A stretch of DNA of 64,000 bases, taken from an uncultured delta proteobacterium (GTDB lineage Bacteria; Myxococcota_A; Polyangia; Fen-1088). The position numbers and the translations under genes were made by a program. Each line of letters starts with the position of its first letter. The stretch's first letter is position 1. Below, in pieces: positions 2,633 to 64,000 of this stretch. The stretch spans positions 96,001 through 160,000 of the forward strand of contig CAWCMR010000011.1 in assembly GCA_963796685.1 (NCBI GenBank), written 5' to 3'. Below the pieces are notes generated by a model. The model ran no database searches, was not told the DNA's origin, and saw only the letters and a list, made by a program, of their open reading frames with translations.

Positions 2633-4105
2633 GCCAGCTACGCACGTGCGCGCTCCGATCCCCTCGCCCCGCGCAAGGGCTAGGGTGAGGGGCCAGGGCA
2701 CGCTCTCGCATGGCCGAACCCCTCACCCGACGCGCTTCGCGCGTCGACCTCTCCCCGCTTCGCGGGGCGAGGTGAATCTTCCGCGGCCACGCGCCTGGGG
2801 TCCGGCCAGCTACGTACGTGCGCGCTCCGATCCCCTCGCCCCGCGCAGCGGGGAGAGGGCTAGGGTGAGGGGCCAGGGCACGCTCTCGCATGGCCGAACC
2901 CCTCACCCGACACGCTTCGCGCGTCGACCTCTCCCCGCTTCGCGGGGCGAGGTGAATCTTCCGCGGCCACGCGCCTGGGGTCCGGCCAGCTACGTACGTG
3001 CGCGCTCCGATCCCCTCGCCCCGCGCAGCGGGGAGAGGGCTAGGGTGAGGGGCCAGGGCACGCTCTCGCATGGCCGAACCCCTCACCCGACGCGCTTCGC
3101 GCGTCGACCTCTCCCCGCTTCGCGGGGCGAGGTGAATCTTCCGCGGCCACGCGCCTGGGGTCCGGCCAGCTACGTACGTGCGCGCTCCGATCCCCTCGCC
3201 CCGCGCAGCGGGGAGAGGGCTAGGGTGAGGGGCCAGGGCACGCTCTCGCATGGCCGAACCCCTCACCCGACGCGCTTCGCGCGTCGACCTCTCCCCGCTT
3301 CGCGGGGCGAGGTGAATCTTCCGCGGCCACGCGCCTGGGGTCCGGCCAGCTACGTACGTGCGCGCTCCAATCCCCTCGCCCCGCGCAGCGGGGAGAGGGC
3401 TAGGGTGAGGGGCCAGGGCACGCTCTCGCATGGCCGAACCCCTCACCCGACACGCTTCGCGCCTCGACCTCTCCCCGCTTCGCGGGGCGAGGTGAATCTT
3501 CCGCGGCCACGCGCCTGGAGTCCGGCCAGCTACGCACGTGCGCGCTCCAATCCCCTCGCCCCGCGCAAGGGCTAGGGTGAGGGGCCAGGGCACGCTCTCG
3601 CATGGCCGAACCCCTTACCCGACACGCTTCGCGCGTCGACCTCTCCCCGCTTCGCGGGGCGAGGTGAATCTTCCGCGGCCACGCGCCTGGGGTCCGGCCA
3701 GCTACGCACGTGCGCGCTCCAATCCCCTCGCCCCGCGCAGCGGGGAGAGGGCTAGGGTGAGGGGCCAGGGCACGCTCTCGCATGGCCGAACCCCTCACCC
3801 GACGCGCTTCGCGCGTCGACCTCTCCCCGCTTCGCGGGGCGAGGTGAATCTTCCGCGGCCACGCGCCTGGGGTCCGGCCAGCTACGTACGTGCGCGCTCC
3901 GATCCCCTCGCCCCGCGCAAGGGCTAGGGTGAGGGGCCAGGGCACGCTCTCGCATGGCCGAACCCCTCACCCGACGCGCTTCGCGCGTCGACCTCTCCCC
4001 GCTTCGCGGGGCGAGGTGAATCTTCCGCGGCCACGCGCCTGGGGTCCGGCCAGCTACGTACGTGCGCGCTCCGATCCCCTCGCCCCGCGCAAGGGCTAGG
4101 GTGAG
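2633..4105. repeat. Tandem array of 172/180-bp REP/BIME-like units, left part (8 units)
   Basis: Marker CATGGCCGAACCCC at 2709, 2889, 3069, 3249, 3429, 3601, 3781, 3953 (spacing 180 or 172). Each unit has CCTCKCCCCGC-loop-GCGGGGMGAGG hairpins and a GGGTGAGGGG/CCCCTCACCC inverted pair. Confidence 0.97.
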
Positions 4106-4126
4106 CATCTGTGTTCCTAGTCAAGG

Positions 4127-5795
<1,669 letters not shown>

Positions 5796-5816
5796 GTCGG
5801 CCGAGGCGGTTCTCCT

Positions 5817-53506: not shown

Positions 53507-54964
53507 CTACTTCATCGTCAACAGTCCGGAGCCGCGGATGTACCTGCCGCCGAACAACATCTCCAGGATGGCTTGAATGCGCTGGTCGAAGATCTGGTGG
53601 CCGCCTAGCGCTTGAATCGCCAGGCGCATGCTGAAGTTGTAGCGCTCGACGATGATCTCCAAATCGAAGGGCTTGGCGCTGTGCATTTCTTCGATGACCT
53701 GCAGATCATGCTTCGCCGCGCGCAGCGCCTTCATCATCAGGATATCGTGGCGTTCGGGCACCCAAACCACGAGGTTGCGAAAGCGCAGGTCCGGCTTGTA
53801 GCGACGCTCTTCGTAGGAGACCGGTGCATAGGGCCCGGGTGCCTGCTCGAGCGGGATCTTGAGTGTCGTGCTGGAAACGAGCCGGACGATGCGCGCGTCG
53901 AACGGCGAAAGGCTGTTGATGTCCTTGGTCGCGCTCCGCGCTCCGTGGGCAAGCAACGCAGCCGCGCCACCGATGATCTCCATCACCACCGGCTCGTGGA
54001 GCATGCCGTCGATTTCGGTGAGAAATGCCAGGATCTGCTCGCGTCCGAAGGTCCTGTTTGTAGCAGCCTCCAGCCTGGCTTGCGGCGAACAGGGCTGGAC
54101 CTCGCTCGCGACCGCAGGGTCTCCGCGGGCCGACGTAAGCTGGGTCAGCACTTCGAGCATCGACGCCTGTCGTTCTGCCGGGGCCTTGGCCATCGCCTGC
54201 AGAATGATGGCTTCCACGGCGGGAGGAAGGTCGACCCGGTAGGTCGTGGGGGCGACGGGCTCGTCGGCGATGTGCTTGCTGATGACGACGAAAAGACCAT
54301 CGCCATCGAAGGGGCGCTTGCCGGCCACCATCTCGTACAAGATCACACCCAGGGAATAGATGTCGCTGCGGGAGTCGATGTCCTTCAGGCTCAGACACTG
54401 CTCGGGCGACATGTAGAGAGGCGTGCCGAGAAGGGCACCGGTTTGGGTCTTGTGGACTTGCTCCAGCGTTCGCCGTTGCAGCTTGGCGATGCCAAAATCC
54501 AGGACCTTCACTTGCTTCCTGCCTGGACGGCGTGGATCCGCGACCAAGAAGAGATTGTCGGGTTTCACATCGCGATGGATCACGCCGTGGGCGTGGGCCG
54601 CGGCCAGCGCCTCGGCCACCTGGCTTCCCCAGTCGAGCACGTCATCCAGCGCGACTGGACCGCGGTCGAGCACCTGCTTGAGCGTTTCACCCTCGAGGTA
54701 CTCCATCACGATGTACGGAGAGCCCCCCTCGATCAGGCCCGAGTCGTAGATGTCCACGATGTTGGGATGGCGAATGGCATTGGCGGCGCGGGCCTCGGTG
54801 ATGAAGCGGCTGACGATCTGCGTATCCTCGGCATCGCCCGCGGACAGCACCTTGATCGCGGCGTGGCGGCCTATGCCGGGATGGACGGCCAGGTACACCC
54901 TTCCCATCCCGCCTTCTGCGATAAGACGCTGGACTTCGTAGTTGCCGATGGTCGTCCCAATCAC
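53507..54964 (-). CDS. Ser/Thr kinase fused to a C-terminal DUF6036-like nucleotidyltransferase domain
   Basis: Kinase motifs EGGMGRVY, AIKVL, HRDVKPDN, DFG and SPE; then IIGGAAALLAHGARSATKDIN, DILMMKALRAAKHDLQ. No TM segment. Confidence 0.85.
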   Translation of the reverse strand: MIGTTIGNYEVQRLIAEGGMGRVYLAVHPGIGRHAAIKVLSAGDAEDTQIVSRFITEARAANAIRHPNIVDIYDSGLIEGGSPYIVMEYLEGETLKQVLDRGPVALDDVLDWGSQVAEALAAAHAHGVIHRDVKPDNLFLVADPRRPGRKQVKVLDFGIAKLQRRTLEQVHKTQTGALLGTPLYMSPEQCLSLKDIDSRSDIYSLGVILYEMVAGKRPFDGDGLFVVISKHIADEPVAPTTYRVDLPPAVEAIILQAMAKAPAERQASMLEVLTQLTSARGDPAVASEVQPCSPQARLEAATNRTFGREQILAFLTEIDGMLHEPVVMEIIGGAAALLAHGARSATKDINSLSPFDARIVRLVSSTTLKIPLEQAPGPYAPVSYEERRYKPDLRFRNLVVWVPERHDILMMKALRAAKHDLQVIEEMHSAKPFDLEIIVERYNFSMRLAIQALGGHQIFDQRIQAILEMLFGGRYIRGSGLLTMK

Positions 54965-55039
54965 GCGCGAATAGGCTGCAGTATCGGCGCGATCCGAACC
55001 GTCTGCAACACGATCCCTGGCAAGGAGAGGCCGCACGCG

Positions 55040-55094
55040 CAGGTTCACGATCTTCTGCCCGCTCGCCGACTGGCGAGACCGGGCCGCTTCCGCG
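55040..55094 (-). pseudogene. Fragment paralogous to the 3' part of the small gene at 58295-58474
   Basis: CAGGTTCACGATCTTCTGCCCGCTCGCCGACTGGCGAGACC resembles 58334-58374. Confidence 0.6.
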
Positions 55095-56861: not shown

Positions 56862-56920
56862 TTGACACGTTCGCATATTCCAATAACAATTCGTGTCACT
56901 TGCCCGCCACGGAGGCGCCT
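56862..56920 (+). promoter_or_regulatory. Repeated promoter/leader motif, copy 1
   Basis: TTGACA-16 nt-TAACAATTCGTGTCACTTGCCCGCCACGGAGGCG. Confidence 0.55.
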
Positions 56921-57003
56921 GTAAACACTCGTGGCATACCGCCAAGGCGTCGATATCGCCGCACGGGTGCGAGACGCCCTCTCTGGATCCCTGACGCCAT
57001 CGC

Positions 57004-60362: not shown

Positions 60363-60422
60363 TTGACACGCTCCGCCTCTCCCGATAACAAGCCGTCTCA
60401 CTTGCCCGCCACGGAGGCGCCT
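60363..60422 (+). promoter_or_regulatory. Repeated promoter/leader motif, copy 2
   Basis: TTGACA-17 nt-TAACAAGCCGTCTCACTTGCCCGCCACGGAGGCG. Confidence 0.55.
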
Positions 60423-60428
60423 AAAACC

Positions 60429-60484
60429 ACCTCGCCCCGCGCAGCGGGGAGAGGTCGCCGAGCGCAGCGAGGCGGGTGAGGGGC
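60429..60484. repeat. Single REP-like element
   Basis: CCTCGCCCCGC-GCA-GCGGGGAGAGG...GGGTGAGGGG. Confidence 0.85.
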
Positions 60485-61677: not shown

Positions 61678-61732
61678 CGTCGTCGGCGACACCGACAGCA
61701 ACATCGGTGGCCGCCAAGGGCCGGGCATGGTT

Positions 61733-61775
61733 CCCATCCGCGACCATGGTCCGTGCGACGAAGGGGTAGGGTTGT
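61733..61775. repeat. Dispersed ~43-bp repeat; second copy at ~63868-63914
   Basis: CCCATCCGCGACCATGGTCCGTGCGAsGAAGGGGkAGGGTTGTTT occurs twice. Confidence 0.8.
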
Positions 61776-61974
61776 TTTTTTTTGTGACCATCACCGATGT
61801 CCCGGTCATCGCGAGATCCTGACCGCATCGCCGGGGATGGATGCTCTCAGGCTCATCCGCCAATCTCCAGGAGGTACCTGGCGTTCGCGACACTTTGTCG
61901 CGAGGAGTGTCGCGAGAACCGGGCGGCGATGGCGCGAATCGCCTCGCGACAGAGTGTGGTGAGAAGTGTCGCGC

Positions 61975-63474
61975 TCATGGCTTCAGCACCTCGTATCTCG
62001 TGGATGAGCTCGCGCCCACCTTGCGCAACAATCCAAGCTCGGCCAGCTGCTTGAGGTGGCGCTGTGCCTTGCGGGCATCGAATCCCAAGTGCTCGGCATA
62101 CTCCATCCGCGTGACAGAAGTCTTCGTGGCCAGAAACGCCCAGCCTTGCTTCTCGTCGACGTTCAGGGCCCTCAGCACGTCGGCGTTCAAGGCACCAACC
62201 GCCGCCTGGGCGTGTCGGTAGATGGTCAGGTTCAGGTAAAGTCCATCGAACGCATACTTCGGCACGGGCAACCCATACCTGTCAGCAGCCTCGCCGAAAG
62301 TCCGCATGCCAAAGCCTCGCCCCTCCACCAGTCTTGTTCCGCCAAACGCGAACTGCAACTTGGGATTCCGGTTGTACATCGGCGCGGTGAATGCCTGCAT
62401 CTGCGCCACCGTGATGGGAGAAAGTGGCGCGCCTGGACTGCGCACCGTAACCGAATCCGACGTCACCACCAGATGGCAAGTAGCCCCTACCAGGTCGTAA
62501 TCACGATGCACGAGAGCATTGATGACCGCCTCTCGCACCAGCTCGAAGGGCAACGAGGGACGCTCCCGGCGGGTCATCCTGCTCCGGTCAATCACGGTCG
62601 GCAGCTTCGGACGTAGCCACGCCTCCATGCGGTCGGGAATCAGGATAGTCGGCCCATCGAAGTCCCGAATCTCGTGCGTGCCGTCGGGAAACTCTATCGT
62701 GGCATTCAGACCGGCGTGGTGCAAAACCTCGCGCGGGGCCTTTCCAAAAAGCAGCAATCCAAACCCAGTCGGTACCAGCTTCGAGCCGCGATGGCGAAGT
62801 AGTCCCTGGCGCTCAAGCCGTTGCAGAAACGTGGCCGACGTCGCCTTGTCCGGAATTTTCGTGCGTTCGCGATAGCGAGCCAAAGCGGCTGACGCCAAGT
62901 CGTCTAGCACCGCGCCAGCCAGCGCTTCATCCCAAGGTGAGAGCGGCGCGTGCTTGACGGCCTTCCCATCCTTGGCCTCGGCCGCGCGTTGCAATGCCTG
63001 GGCGATGAACTCCTTGTTCGCCTGACCTATTTGCTCCTGCAAATCAAGATCGAACAGGTAGACCTTGATGCCGTTCTCCTCCAGATACCGAATACCCTGT
63101 CGGTCCACGGCGGGGTCGGGGTCTTCGATGCCCACCCAAACCTCGGCAATCCTGGCGTCTACGATGCGTTCGGCACAGGCCAGTTTGGGATGTTTTCGCG
63201 CTCCTGGCGCGCAAGGTTCCAAGGTAGCGAACAACACCGAGCCATCGAGGCGCTCGTCACGATGCTTGCGCTCGAGCAGCGTGTATTCCGCATGGTCGCC
63301 GTGGCGAAGCTCGCCACGAAACGCGGTGTCGAGCGTTCCGTCCGGTTTCACCAGGACGGCACCCACCAACGGGCTCGCCTTCTTGTCGGCGCGCGGCTCG
63401 TTGACGGACAGCTTCATCACGTCGATGGCTTTCTCCATCATCTTGCGCGGGTCGAATTTGGACTTGGTGGGCAT
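61975..63474 (-). CDS. Zn deaminase (RibD/dCMP-type) - HATPase_c_4 (RecG_C-like) - wHTH fusion
   Basis: PLVGAVLV, HAE, TLEPC...C and DPDP; then REAVINALVHRDY, SPG, RNPKL and EGRGFGM; C-terminal wHTH AQRHLKQLAELGLLRKVG...TRY. Confidence 0.88.
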   Translation of the reverse strand: MPTKSKFDPRKMMEKAIDVMKLSVNEPRADKKASPLVGAVLVKPDGTLDTAFRGELRHGDHAEYTLLERKHRDERLDGSVLFATLEPCAPGARKHPKLACAERIVDARIAEVWVGIEDPDPAVDRQGIRYLEENGIKVYLFDLDLQEQIGQANKEFIAQALQRAAEAKDGKAVKHAPLSPWDEALAGAVLDDLASAALARYRERTKIPDKATSATFLQRLERQGLLRHRGSKLVPTGFGLLLFGKAPREVLHHAGLNATIEFPDGTHEIRDFDGPTILIPDRMEAWLRPKLPTVIDRSRMTRRERPSLPFELVREAVINALVHRDYDLVGATCHLVVTSDSVTVRSPGAPLSPITVAQMQAFTAPMYNRNPKLQFAFGGTRLVEGRGFGMRTFGEAADRYGLPVPKYAFDGLYLNLTIYRHAQAAVGALNADVLRALNVDEKQGWAFLATKTSVTRMEYAEHLGFDARKAQRHLKQLAELGLLRKVGASSSTRYEVLKP

Positions 63475-63921
63475 AGGTTACGACTTTTGCAGCCGCAGGC
63501 TCACCCGGTGCAAGGTGGTACCAGTGCGCGGACGCATCCACCCGTTGCCGATGATGTCGGGGATGACGTCGGTGAGCTCGGGGACTGTCTGAGCAGCAAC
63601 CTCCCCTGAAAGTTCCGCGTGGTGATTTCGACGAGGGCGTGCTCCGGAACGAATCGCGGTGGTCTGGACATACGTTGCTATCGGCCTGGAGGCGGGAAAG
63701 TTGCGCGTGCTTCCCCAGAAATCTCTGGCACCTTCTCCGGTGCCTCGAGCGGTGGGGGGCCAGCGTTCTTTTGGAAGGCGCACCCGGTGGAAGGCCAAGA
63801 ATCAGACTCCGGGGTCCTGACCGATGGTCGTTCAGCGCAGGCCGTGGCGTCCGGGGCCGGGCGTGTTTCCCATCCGCGACCATGGTCCGTGCGAGGAAGG
63901 GGGAGGGTTGTTTCTTTCTAC

Positions 63922-63977
63922 CTGACACCCCAAGCGTCGCCCGATAACAATGCGTGTCACTTGCCCGCCATGGAGGC
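63922..63977 (+). promoter_or_regulatory. Repeated promoter/leader motif, copy 3, followed by RBS and ATG at the window edge
   Basis: CTGACA-17 nt-TAACAATGCGTGTCACTTGCCCGCCATGGAGGCG, then GGAGGT and ATG at 63994. Confidence 0.55.
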
Positions 63978-64000
63978 GGGACTGGAGGTACCCATGCGAA

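Follow-up and report, generated by a model that had tools for sequence, protein, structure and literature searches.

Gene, protein and neighbourhood

The window, a 64,000-nucleotide stretch of DNA from an uncultured delta proteobacterium, carries near its right edge a gene for a 499-residue protein that combines a zinc deaminase, a GHKL-type ATPase module and a winged helix-turn-helix (wHTH), together with two DNA sites downstream of it and a pair of direct repeats. In window coordinates, the features are as follows.

61975..63474, minus strand: deaminase-GHKL ATPase-wHTH gene (P0001), 499 aa, from ORF translation, Pfam and the AlphaFold model
62986..63453, minus strand: RibD-fold Zn deaminase domain, aa 8-163 (H61, E63, C88, C100; R53, R93, D118-P-D120-P), from structure match and conservation
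62215..62985, minus strand: linker subdomain plus PF13749 GHKL-type ATPase, aa 164-420 (E315 and N319 invariant), from structure match and hhalign
61978..62214, minus strand: winged helix-turn-helix, aa 421-499, from the AlphaFold model and structure match
62038..62076, minus strand: recognition helix, aa 467-479, in which Q471 and R472 co-vary with the site, from the AlphaFold model and helix-site comparison
61943..61975, minus strand: site 1 (unit, unit, inverted unit), beginning on the stop codon's last base, its middle unit degenerate in the window copy
61884..61916, minus strand: site 2, intact, with the unit CTCGCGACA, the sole strict match in the 7.3-Mb host genome
61784..63743, no strand assigned: 1,960-bp unit holding the gene, both sites and 269 bp upstream, 99.4% identical in the congener G076
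61718..61781, plus strand: left copy of a 64-nt direct repeat, abutting the 1,960-bp unit
63854..63917, plus strand: right copy of the repeat, 92% identical; G076 has one copy only

The gene had been predicted, from the sequence alone, to encode an intact deaminase-ATPase-wHTH fusion devoid of the RibD reductase domain, and this description was borne out throughout. The reading frame contains no internal stop; the zinc deaminase motif set is complete (H61-A-E63, P87-C88...C100); the module given as REAxxNAxxHRDY/SPG/RNP/GxG reads R314-E315-x3-N319-x3-H323-R-D-Y, S346-P-G, R369-N-P and G387-x-G389; and the RibD model TIGR00326 aligns to aa 32-160 only, with 56 bits against a cut-off of 156. The AlphaFold model that the original prediction had called for, built with 116 relatives of 29-82% identity (pLDDT 92.8, pTM 0.86), gave the domain boundaries listed above, with the wHTH at the C terminus. 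Pfam placed dCMP_cyt_deam_1 at aa 14-115 (E 8.9e-10), Inv-AAD at aa 77-149 and HATPase_c_4 at aa 330-418 (E 7.1e-11), all over cut-off, while wHTH models matched aa ~434-499 below cut-off only. By structure comparison, aa 8-163 resembled Bacillus subtilis RibG (2b3z; VIA Z 20.8, rmsd 2.0 Å, 142 residues), aa 147-454 the AlbA_2-ATPase protein DIP2311 (3lmm; VIA Z 23.0, rmsd 2.9 Å, 236 residues), and the modelled wHTH many wHTH chains (Z ~9-10); the linker/PF13749 part also matched an AlbA_2-HATPase of the host's own genome in hhalign (98.6%). The AlbA_2/Schlafen domain itself is absent, with no PF04326 match at E 0.05 and a deaminase at the N terminus. Residues E63, E315 and N319 are kept in all 116 relatives, H61 and C100 in 115 and C88 in 114, and to judge from this conservation both deaminase and ATPase look catalytically alive. 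Two family members (P0166, P0252) have an additional N-terminal part of 180 aa that opens with two CxxC pairs and has no Pfam match. No system model of PADLOC-DB 2.0.0 matched the protein over its full length; the GHKL part hit Aga_SIR2-PNTD and pAgo, the wHTH hit CARF3, SoFic and Csa3, and none of the PADLOC deaminase models matched. The ESM Atlas returned only generic deaminase clusters (0.83-0.84).

The ATPase module had been regarded as a GHKL-like sensor. According to the available text of 10.64898/2026.05.29.728809, PF13749 binds and hydrolyses ATP via E314/N318 of RzAgo, drives tetramer formation and is required for defence; the two residues bind ATP-Mg, the ATP-driven tetramer is the active state, and E314A abolishes defence. 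E315 and N319 correspond to this pair. A switch of oligomerisation driven by ATP therefore seems the better description of the module, which is not clearly a sensor. The same source reports that PF13749 accompanies 58.6% of prokaryotic Schlafens and that PF13749 proteins occur in restriction-modification (RM) operons, either stand-alone or fused to HsdS. Like these Schlafen-ATPases ('Schlatpases', AlbA_2-PF13749-(HTH), including RzAgo and DIP2311/3LMM), the present protein has a linker plus PF13749 over the Pfam cut-off, the E-x3-N ATP-Mg pair in 116/116 members and a C-terminal wHTH, and its family occurs stand-alone or HsdS-fused in type I RM operons, locus L072 being an HsdS fusion. It differs from them in that the Schlafen RNase is swapped for a deaminase, that there is no Argonaute sensor, and that a distinct wHTH is accompanied by cognate downstream sites. 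In the available part of PMC13056530, only DUF262 and Ig-like Schlafen fusions protected, and HisKinase fusions among the seven tested gave no defence in Escherichia coli, which counts against a simple transfer of Schlafen-ATPase function to our protein.

The 1,960-bp unit lies at a different spot of the same hotspot in G076, where it adjoins GmrSD and type I hsdR/hsdM genes, and its 99.4% identity compares with 96.9% for the flank. Integron cassette or IS ends were considered for this unit and rejected, the unit ends not being inverted repeats. A 57-nt piece is present in three copies ~3.5 kb apart (56872-56928, 60374-60430 and 63933-63989) and in six congeners at similar hotspots, and reads as a reused -35/-10 promoter with a ribosome-binding site. 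The decayed toxin-antitoxin genes noted nearby by the original prediction are indeed there as partly decayed neighbours, namely a DUF433 fragment, a frameshifted PIN gene, an addiction-module antitoxin, and MNT and HepT pieces. The window copy is not inside a type I RM operon; it adjoins a type II-like methyltransferase cluster of four genes just beyond the window's right edge, 1.7 kb upstream of the gene. This cluster, at L085:11207-16948 with all genes on the same strand, encodes a HATPase_c_3 plus histidine-kinase ATPase protein (794 aa), a receiver-like protein (375 aa, no Pfam match), a 241-aa protein and a type II-like DNA methyltransferase (498 aa), and looks like a two-component-controlled RM system. 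Elsewhere, the window encodes a Ser/Thr kinase fused to a DUF6036 nucleotidyltransferase (53507-55048), and around 2700-5800, as well as genome-wide, it carries an abundant GC-rich palindromic repeat of ~56 nt in REP-like arrays with a ~180-bp period.

Distribution of the family and relation to RibD

Matches were found for 3037 proteins among 8000 scored candidates, a count that can include single-domain matches, and 379 of 391 GTDB pattern matches encode relatives; the locus set analysed below comprises the best 80 of these 379, drawn from many bacterial phyla and two archaea. The member at L042 comes from a named isolate, Methanolobus psychrotolerans. The family is patchy and mobile: within the host's order it is present in 3/89 genomes, against 40/41 for RibD. 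No match was found on plasmids at E 1e-30 or in phages at E 1e-10. Defence context was sought as the original prediction had suggested, and type I hsd genes (members of BLAST clusters represented by HsdM, HsdS or HsdR) lay in 43/80 loci, three of them small remnants, compared with 292 of 20,000 random 21.5-kb windows of the host, a control of windows rather than genes in one genome. The script had counted 44, from which L073 was dropped since its gene is a PLD-helicase. The family gene sits between hsdM/S and hsdR on one strand in 24/80 relatives, and in L053 between type III res and mod. The other 37 loci show no hsd gene, many of their flanks being short; ten of them have type III RM, DUF1156, Eco57I, RhuM, HerA, HD-CE, AEP-TOTE or similar neighbours in a scan that covered part of the neighbours, with 8 kb on both sides in only 21 loci. 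No partner gene is fixed across the 80 loci. The hsdS-hsdR slot also hosts CBASS (SAVED, SMODS), SIR2-HerA, TIR, KwaB, OLD, GmrSD, Abi_C and RhuM cargo (for example, L037:2-2505, L020:2220-5320 and the TIR genes of L012 and L026).

That the protein is a deaminase of riboflavin synthesis or of another housekeeping pathway, extended by a regulatory tail, is suggested by the closest solved folds, RibD/RibG, with which the family shares the HAE motif, the zinc cysteines, the phosphate Arg/Lys and the D-P-N-P loop; R93 is kept in 112/116 members, D118 in 115 and D/N120 in 104. Yet the host carries a separate, normal nrdR-ribD-ribE operon elsewhere in its genome, and the original prediction's concern that homologues might sit in riboflavin or housekeeping operons found no echo, as the host's own reductase, RibE and NrdR matched 0/80 loci. 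Open reading frames of 30 other ribD loci matched only two of the 80, both at distant flanking genes. The family is also often broken, 10/80 loci being frameshifted or incomplete (some at contig ends), and the equivalents of RibD Asn28, His47, His81 and Thr85 are altered, the His47 position being R53 in 115/116 members. The CxxC-insert His, found in 30/31 RibD sequences (all of the host's phylum), is not among the common residues of the 116 family members or 56 deaminase fusions, and the Thr of PCxHxG(R/K)TPPC, invariant in the 31 RibD, varies in both; these are traits of RibD and RibD-like enzymes (PMC3239186, PMC3668577), and the available text of PMC3239186, which defines RibD-like enzymes by the insert His, mentions no conflict role for them. 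In place of the reductase, the C-terminal part matches 3LMM. The protein is not RibD, and the housekeeping reading is in our judgment extremely improbable. The same differences, namely the missing reductase, the altered residues and the location outside rib operons, set the family apart from both RibD/RibG and fungal Rib2, whose fold, Zn site, phosphate Arg and ribose D-P-N/D-P loop it shares.

With the deaminase of a TPR protein as query, 56 long proteins were found, of which 36 bear no other Pfam domain and 20 do, including NACHT, TPR, TIR, LRR, EAD7 with PRTase, and reverse transcriptase; three of these 20 look metabolic (SAH hydrolase twice, radical SAM). A search for longer proteins containing the family yielded a single fusion, failed to recover the one with HsdS, and is hence weak. 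P0278 is a retron reverse transcriptase of the RT-protease/RT-TIR type (E 1.6e-123), a single-gene kind that also includes RT-Toprim; the deaminase fills its effector slot, which makes it a candidate new retron type in the single-gene type XI/XII/I-C group; P0270, P0275, P0283, P0307, P0288, P0295 and P0318 join the clade to TPR, NACHT, TIR, LRR and PRTase-EAD7 domains. A quickly computed tree, with 37 domains from the family, 30 from fusions, 19 from RibD and 3 others (subsets of the 116, 56 and 31), places family and fusions together on one side of a branch, apart from RibD (SH-aLRT 95), and the two have E26, R53-G-E55 and K97 in common. The deaminase would thereby represent a RibD-derived effector clade also used by retron RT, NACHT, TIR and TPR proteins. 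The available NACHT effector list of 10.1101/2022.07.19.500537 contains no deaminase. The predicted effector swap and defence role are supported as far as context goes, by embedding in type I RM loci, by a module common to Schlafen-ATPases and by the fusions of the clade; protection or toxicity itself is a prediction.

With the roles of RibD residues taken from the available parts of PMC3668577 and PMC8256712, the ribose- and phosphate-binding residues (D118, D/N120, R93) are kept, whereas the ring-binding ones are altered. Since contacts to the 2'/3'-OH and phosphate are kept, the residues point to a free ribonucleotide rather than DNA as substrate. RibD acts on ring-opened GTP, deaminating it at the C2 position of guanine, so a guanine nucleotide would overlay on the RibD substrate; R53 appears to sit where a ring oxygen is read, and a triphosphate could be held by the basic residues that the family has gained. 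A guanine ribonucleotide, with GTP converted to XTP, is our tentative guess, more likely wrong than right; possible alternatives are CTP or the modified purine nucleotides with which phages counter restriction.

Paired sites and their code with the recognition helix

The original prediction of a single-gene system did not include the DNA sites at 61884-61975 or the RM context, and is better replaced by a gene plus a cis DNA element, predicted to be read by the wHTH and usually inside RM operons. The DNA 3' of the stop codon is conserved among relatives and contains a 33-bp three-part site, in which a 9-bp unit is repeated 12 bp on and then followed by an inverted unit. In a survey of 82 loci (the 80, the window and G124), of which nine with no wHTH end read were left out, a strict site lay within 150 bp downstream in 57/73; an upstream three-part operator, as in C proteins, was seen in only 1/71, and shuffles gave 0/3650. 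An intact pair, scoring at most 10 (best shuffle 14), was present in 53 loci and missing from 20, the spacing between its sites being 62 bp in 44; the accepted range of 60-64 was picked after seeing 62. The pair in the window, which scores 13 and is spaced by 59 bp rather than the 62 of most relatives, fails the cut-off. Given this spacing and the degeneracy of its site 1, the window copy may be weakened. Site 1 begins within 12 bp of the stop codon in 34 of the 53 pairs and 14-60 bp after it in 19. The site followed 0/27 other PF13749 genes (control set: 26 scanned, 19 of them with AlbA_2). Two Schlafen-ATPase genes of the host's own genome, at L003 and L004, likewise have no three-part site 3'.

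Two residues of the modelled recognition helix predict the site bases in 53/53 loci. Residue 471 corresponds to base 5 (R/K with G, 14/14; Q/L with C, 33/33; M with T, 6/6) and residue 472 to bases 7-8 (R with AC, 31/31; N with CC, 19/19; F/Y with CA, 3/3). Nine helix types fit this one two-position code, as do 20 of 362,880 permutations, and independent pairs agree in direction in 7/7 cases for each position. A tree built from the remainder of the protein (51 rows, without two frameshifted ones) shows 24 changes of helix type, compared with 26.9 in shuffles; being physically linked, helix and site could have been swapped together by linkage alone. Among 13 close homologues, the wHTH is 52% identical, compared with 78-86% for the other domains. 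In a reverse search by site pattern alone, 120 metagenome stretches were recovered, 65 of them with a family gene upstream, and R occupied position 472 in 49/49 readable helices within 130 bp (46 QR, 2 ER, 1 GR). Since the other 55 have no family gene upstream (28 of these with at least 600 bp upstream), sites persist alone. Non-cognate sites trail the cognate pair, often 55-64 bp apart, as if each swap of helix and site had left the previous site behind. These patterns suggest that wHTH and site diversify jointly by a two-residue code. L162 and L172 carry four or five different site types in succession, and at L162, L198 and L244 deaminase-only reading frames (~130 aa matched) end 7-20 bp before a site.

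The repeats might instead act as RNA, in the form of a 3' UTR hairpin, a terminator or an antitoxin like AvcI, which is an RNA antitoxin, and the window's stretch does fold at z -4.7. Any inverted repeat folds, however; the distances of 12 bp and 62 bp are conserved even though the spacers drift in sequence, no Rfam match and no terminator were found for the site region, and the code involves those helix positions with which HTH proteins read double-stranded DNA. We consider an RNA role very unlikely.

A weightier alternative is that the wHTH controls the downstream restriction gene, repressing, roadblocking or activating hsdR or the next defence gene in the manner of C proteins, with deaminase and ATPase serving as a nucleotide-sensing switch or side activity. 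hsdR lies within 500 bp in 24/71 loci and another defence gene in 15, orphan sites often persist before hsdR (8/28), and C proteins themselves diversify and exclude each other, one of them being a roadblock (PMC12707154, available text). By contrast, intact pairs are present in 18/22 loci where no co-oriented gene follows, 14/24 before hsdR (p 0.11) and 14/15 before other defence genes; that pairs are kept whatever follows makes the protein itself a more plausible target of control than hsdR. The downstream gene moreover varies (hsdR, radC, mod, DUF1156) and is not part of the 1.96-kb mobile unit, which does include the sites, and the deaminase keeps its catalytic residues and belongs to a clade that fills the effector slot elsewhere. 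Altogether, we regard control of a neighbouring gene as unlikely, while giving it appreciable weight.

A possible mode of action

The reading that we prefer, and hold to be probable, is a defence effector that binds its own sites; within RM clusters, the protein would likely serve as a back-up effector against phages. ATP would assemble a dimer or tetramer through the GHKL domain, as in RzAgo, and the oligomer would bridge the two sites, whose 62-bp spacing, about six helical turns, places them on the same DNA face. Bound to the sites through the wHTH, the small number of molecules would be parked on the chromosome and kept inactive. With site 1 at the stop codon, bound protein could roadblock its own transcript, stalling RNA polymerase at the end of the reading frame, and so keep the protein pool near the number of sites; in the 19/53 pairs with site 1 14-60 bp past the stop codon, it is too far away for a roadblock within the reading frame. 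LacI reportedly provides a precedent for a bound protein that stalls RNA polymerase, with tmRNA tagging, and resembles the present case in having a site at its own gene's end. Should a phage destroy the host DNA, or should a DNA mimic directed against the RM enzyme displace the wHTH, the freed oligomer would deaminate a free ribonucleotide and stall the cell; release from DNA as the trigger is, in particular, a doubtful element. A DNA-parked, self-limiting oligomer would fit the guardian systems embedded in RM loci described in PMC12707154, as far as its available text goes.

The converse, in which DNA sites activate the effector (for example, upon island amplification or excision) or the deaminated nucleotide signals to a neighbour, draws on the ATP-driven tetramer being the active state in RzAgo, which in-phase sites could template, and on neighbours that include SIR2-HerA, TIR, CBASS and Abi_C genes. 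An always-present, one-copy site would require a second switch, though, and a fixed partner gene is lacking, and we rate this reading, in either form, as distinctly improbable. In full, the silencing model would amount to an immune module of toxin-antitoxin type, with a chromosomal DNA site in the role of the antitoxin; it would comprise an ATP-assembled deaminase tetramer clamped, in self-limiting fashion, on two in-phase sites at its own gene's end, converting GTP to XTP upon host-DNA loss or a DNA mimic, with wHTH and site co-diversifying by the two-residue code, an ordered trail of old sites, and a RibD-derived clade shared with retrons and bacterial NLRs; as a whole it is speculative, and we think it rather unlikely to hold in every part.

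Nucleotide-deaminase effectors of bacterial immunity include dCTP deaminase/AvcD, RADAR RdrB, Cad1 and Kongming KomA. The proposed output here, a nucleotide pool altered by deamination, would be the same, whereas the domain differs in belonging to a RibD-derived clade with E26, R53-G-E55 and K97 and a predicted ribonucleotide, possibly guanine, substrate. PrrC/RloC and PARIS are likewise accessory effectors in type I RM loci, proposed to fire on RM inhibition or host-DNA breakage (PMC12707154, available text); our system differs in its GHKL rather than ABC ATPase, its deaminase in place of a tRNase and its sequence-specific wHTH with a cis site. By analogy, the protein may function like a Schlafen-ATPase or a PrrC-type accessory effector, yet it is a member of neither family. 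With RM C proteins it shares an HTH, paired operators and diversified specificity; those proteins are small and bind upstream of their own gene, whereas here the sites lie downstream and the protein carries two enzymes.

In the literature searched, no description of the deaminase-GHKL-wHTH architecture, the sites or site-based control was found, in keeping with the original prediction, which knew of no characterised system of this architecture; supplementary NACHT, retron and Schlafen tables may list deaminase fusions. The word 'deaminase' is absent from the main text of 10.64898/2026.05.29.728809, PMC13056530, PMC13552941 and 10.1101/2022.07.19.500537. New in the present analysis are the paired three-part sites directly 3' of the stop codon and their code with the wHTH helix.

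With these findings, a deaminase joins the effectors borne by a GHKL module employed by more than half of prokaryotic Schlafens, and a RibD-derived effector clade common to retron and NACHT/TPR proteins is identified. We know of no earlier case of immune deamination of a guanine nucleotide, which, if true, would be a new immune chemistry. Together with the helices, the sites represent a naturally occurring code between wHTH and DNA that spans at least nine helix types. If the 150 bp 3' of the reading frame are omitted in cloning, the phenotype may be missed or distorted, and the cis sites make control of the protein directly and cheaply testable.
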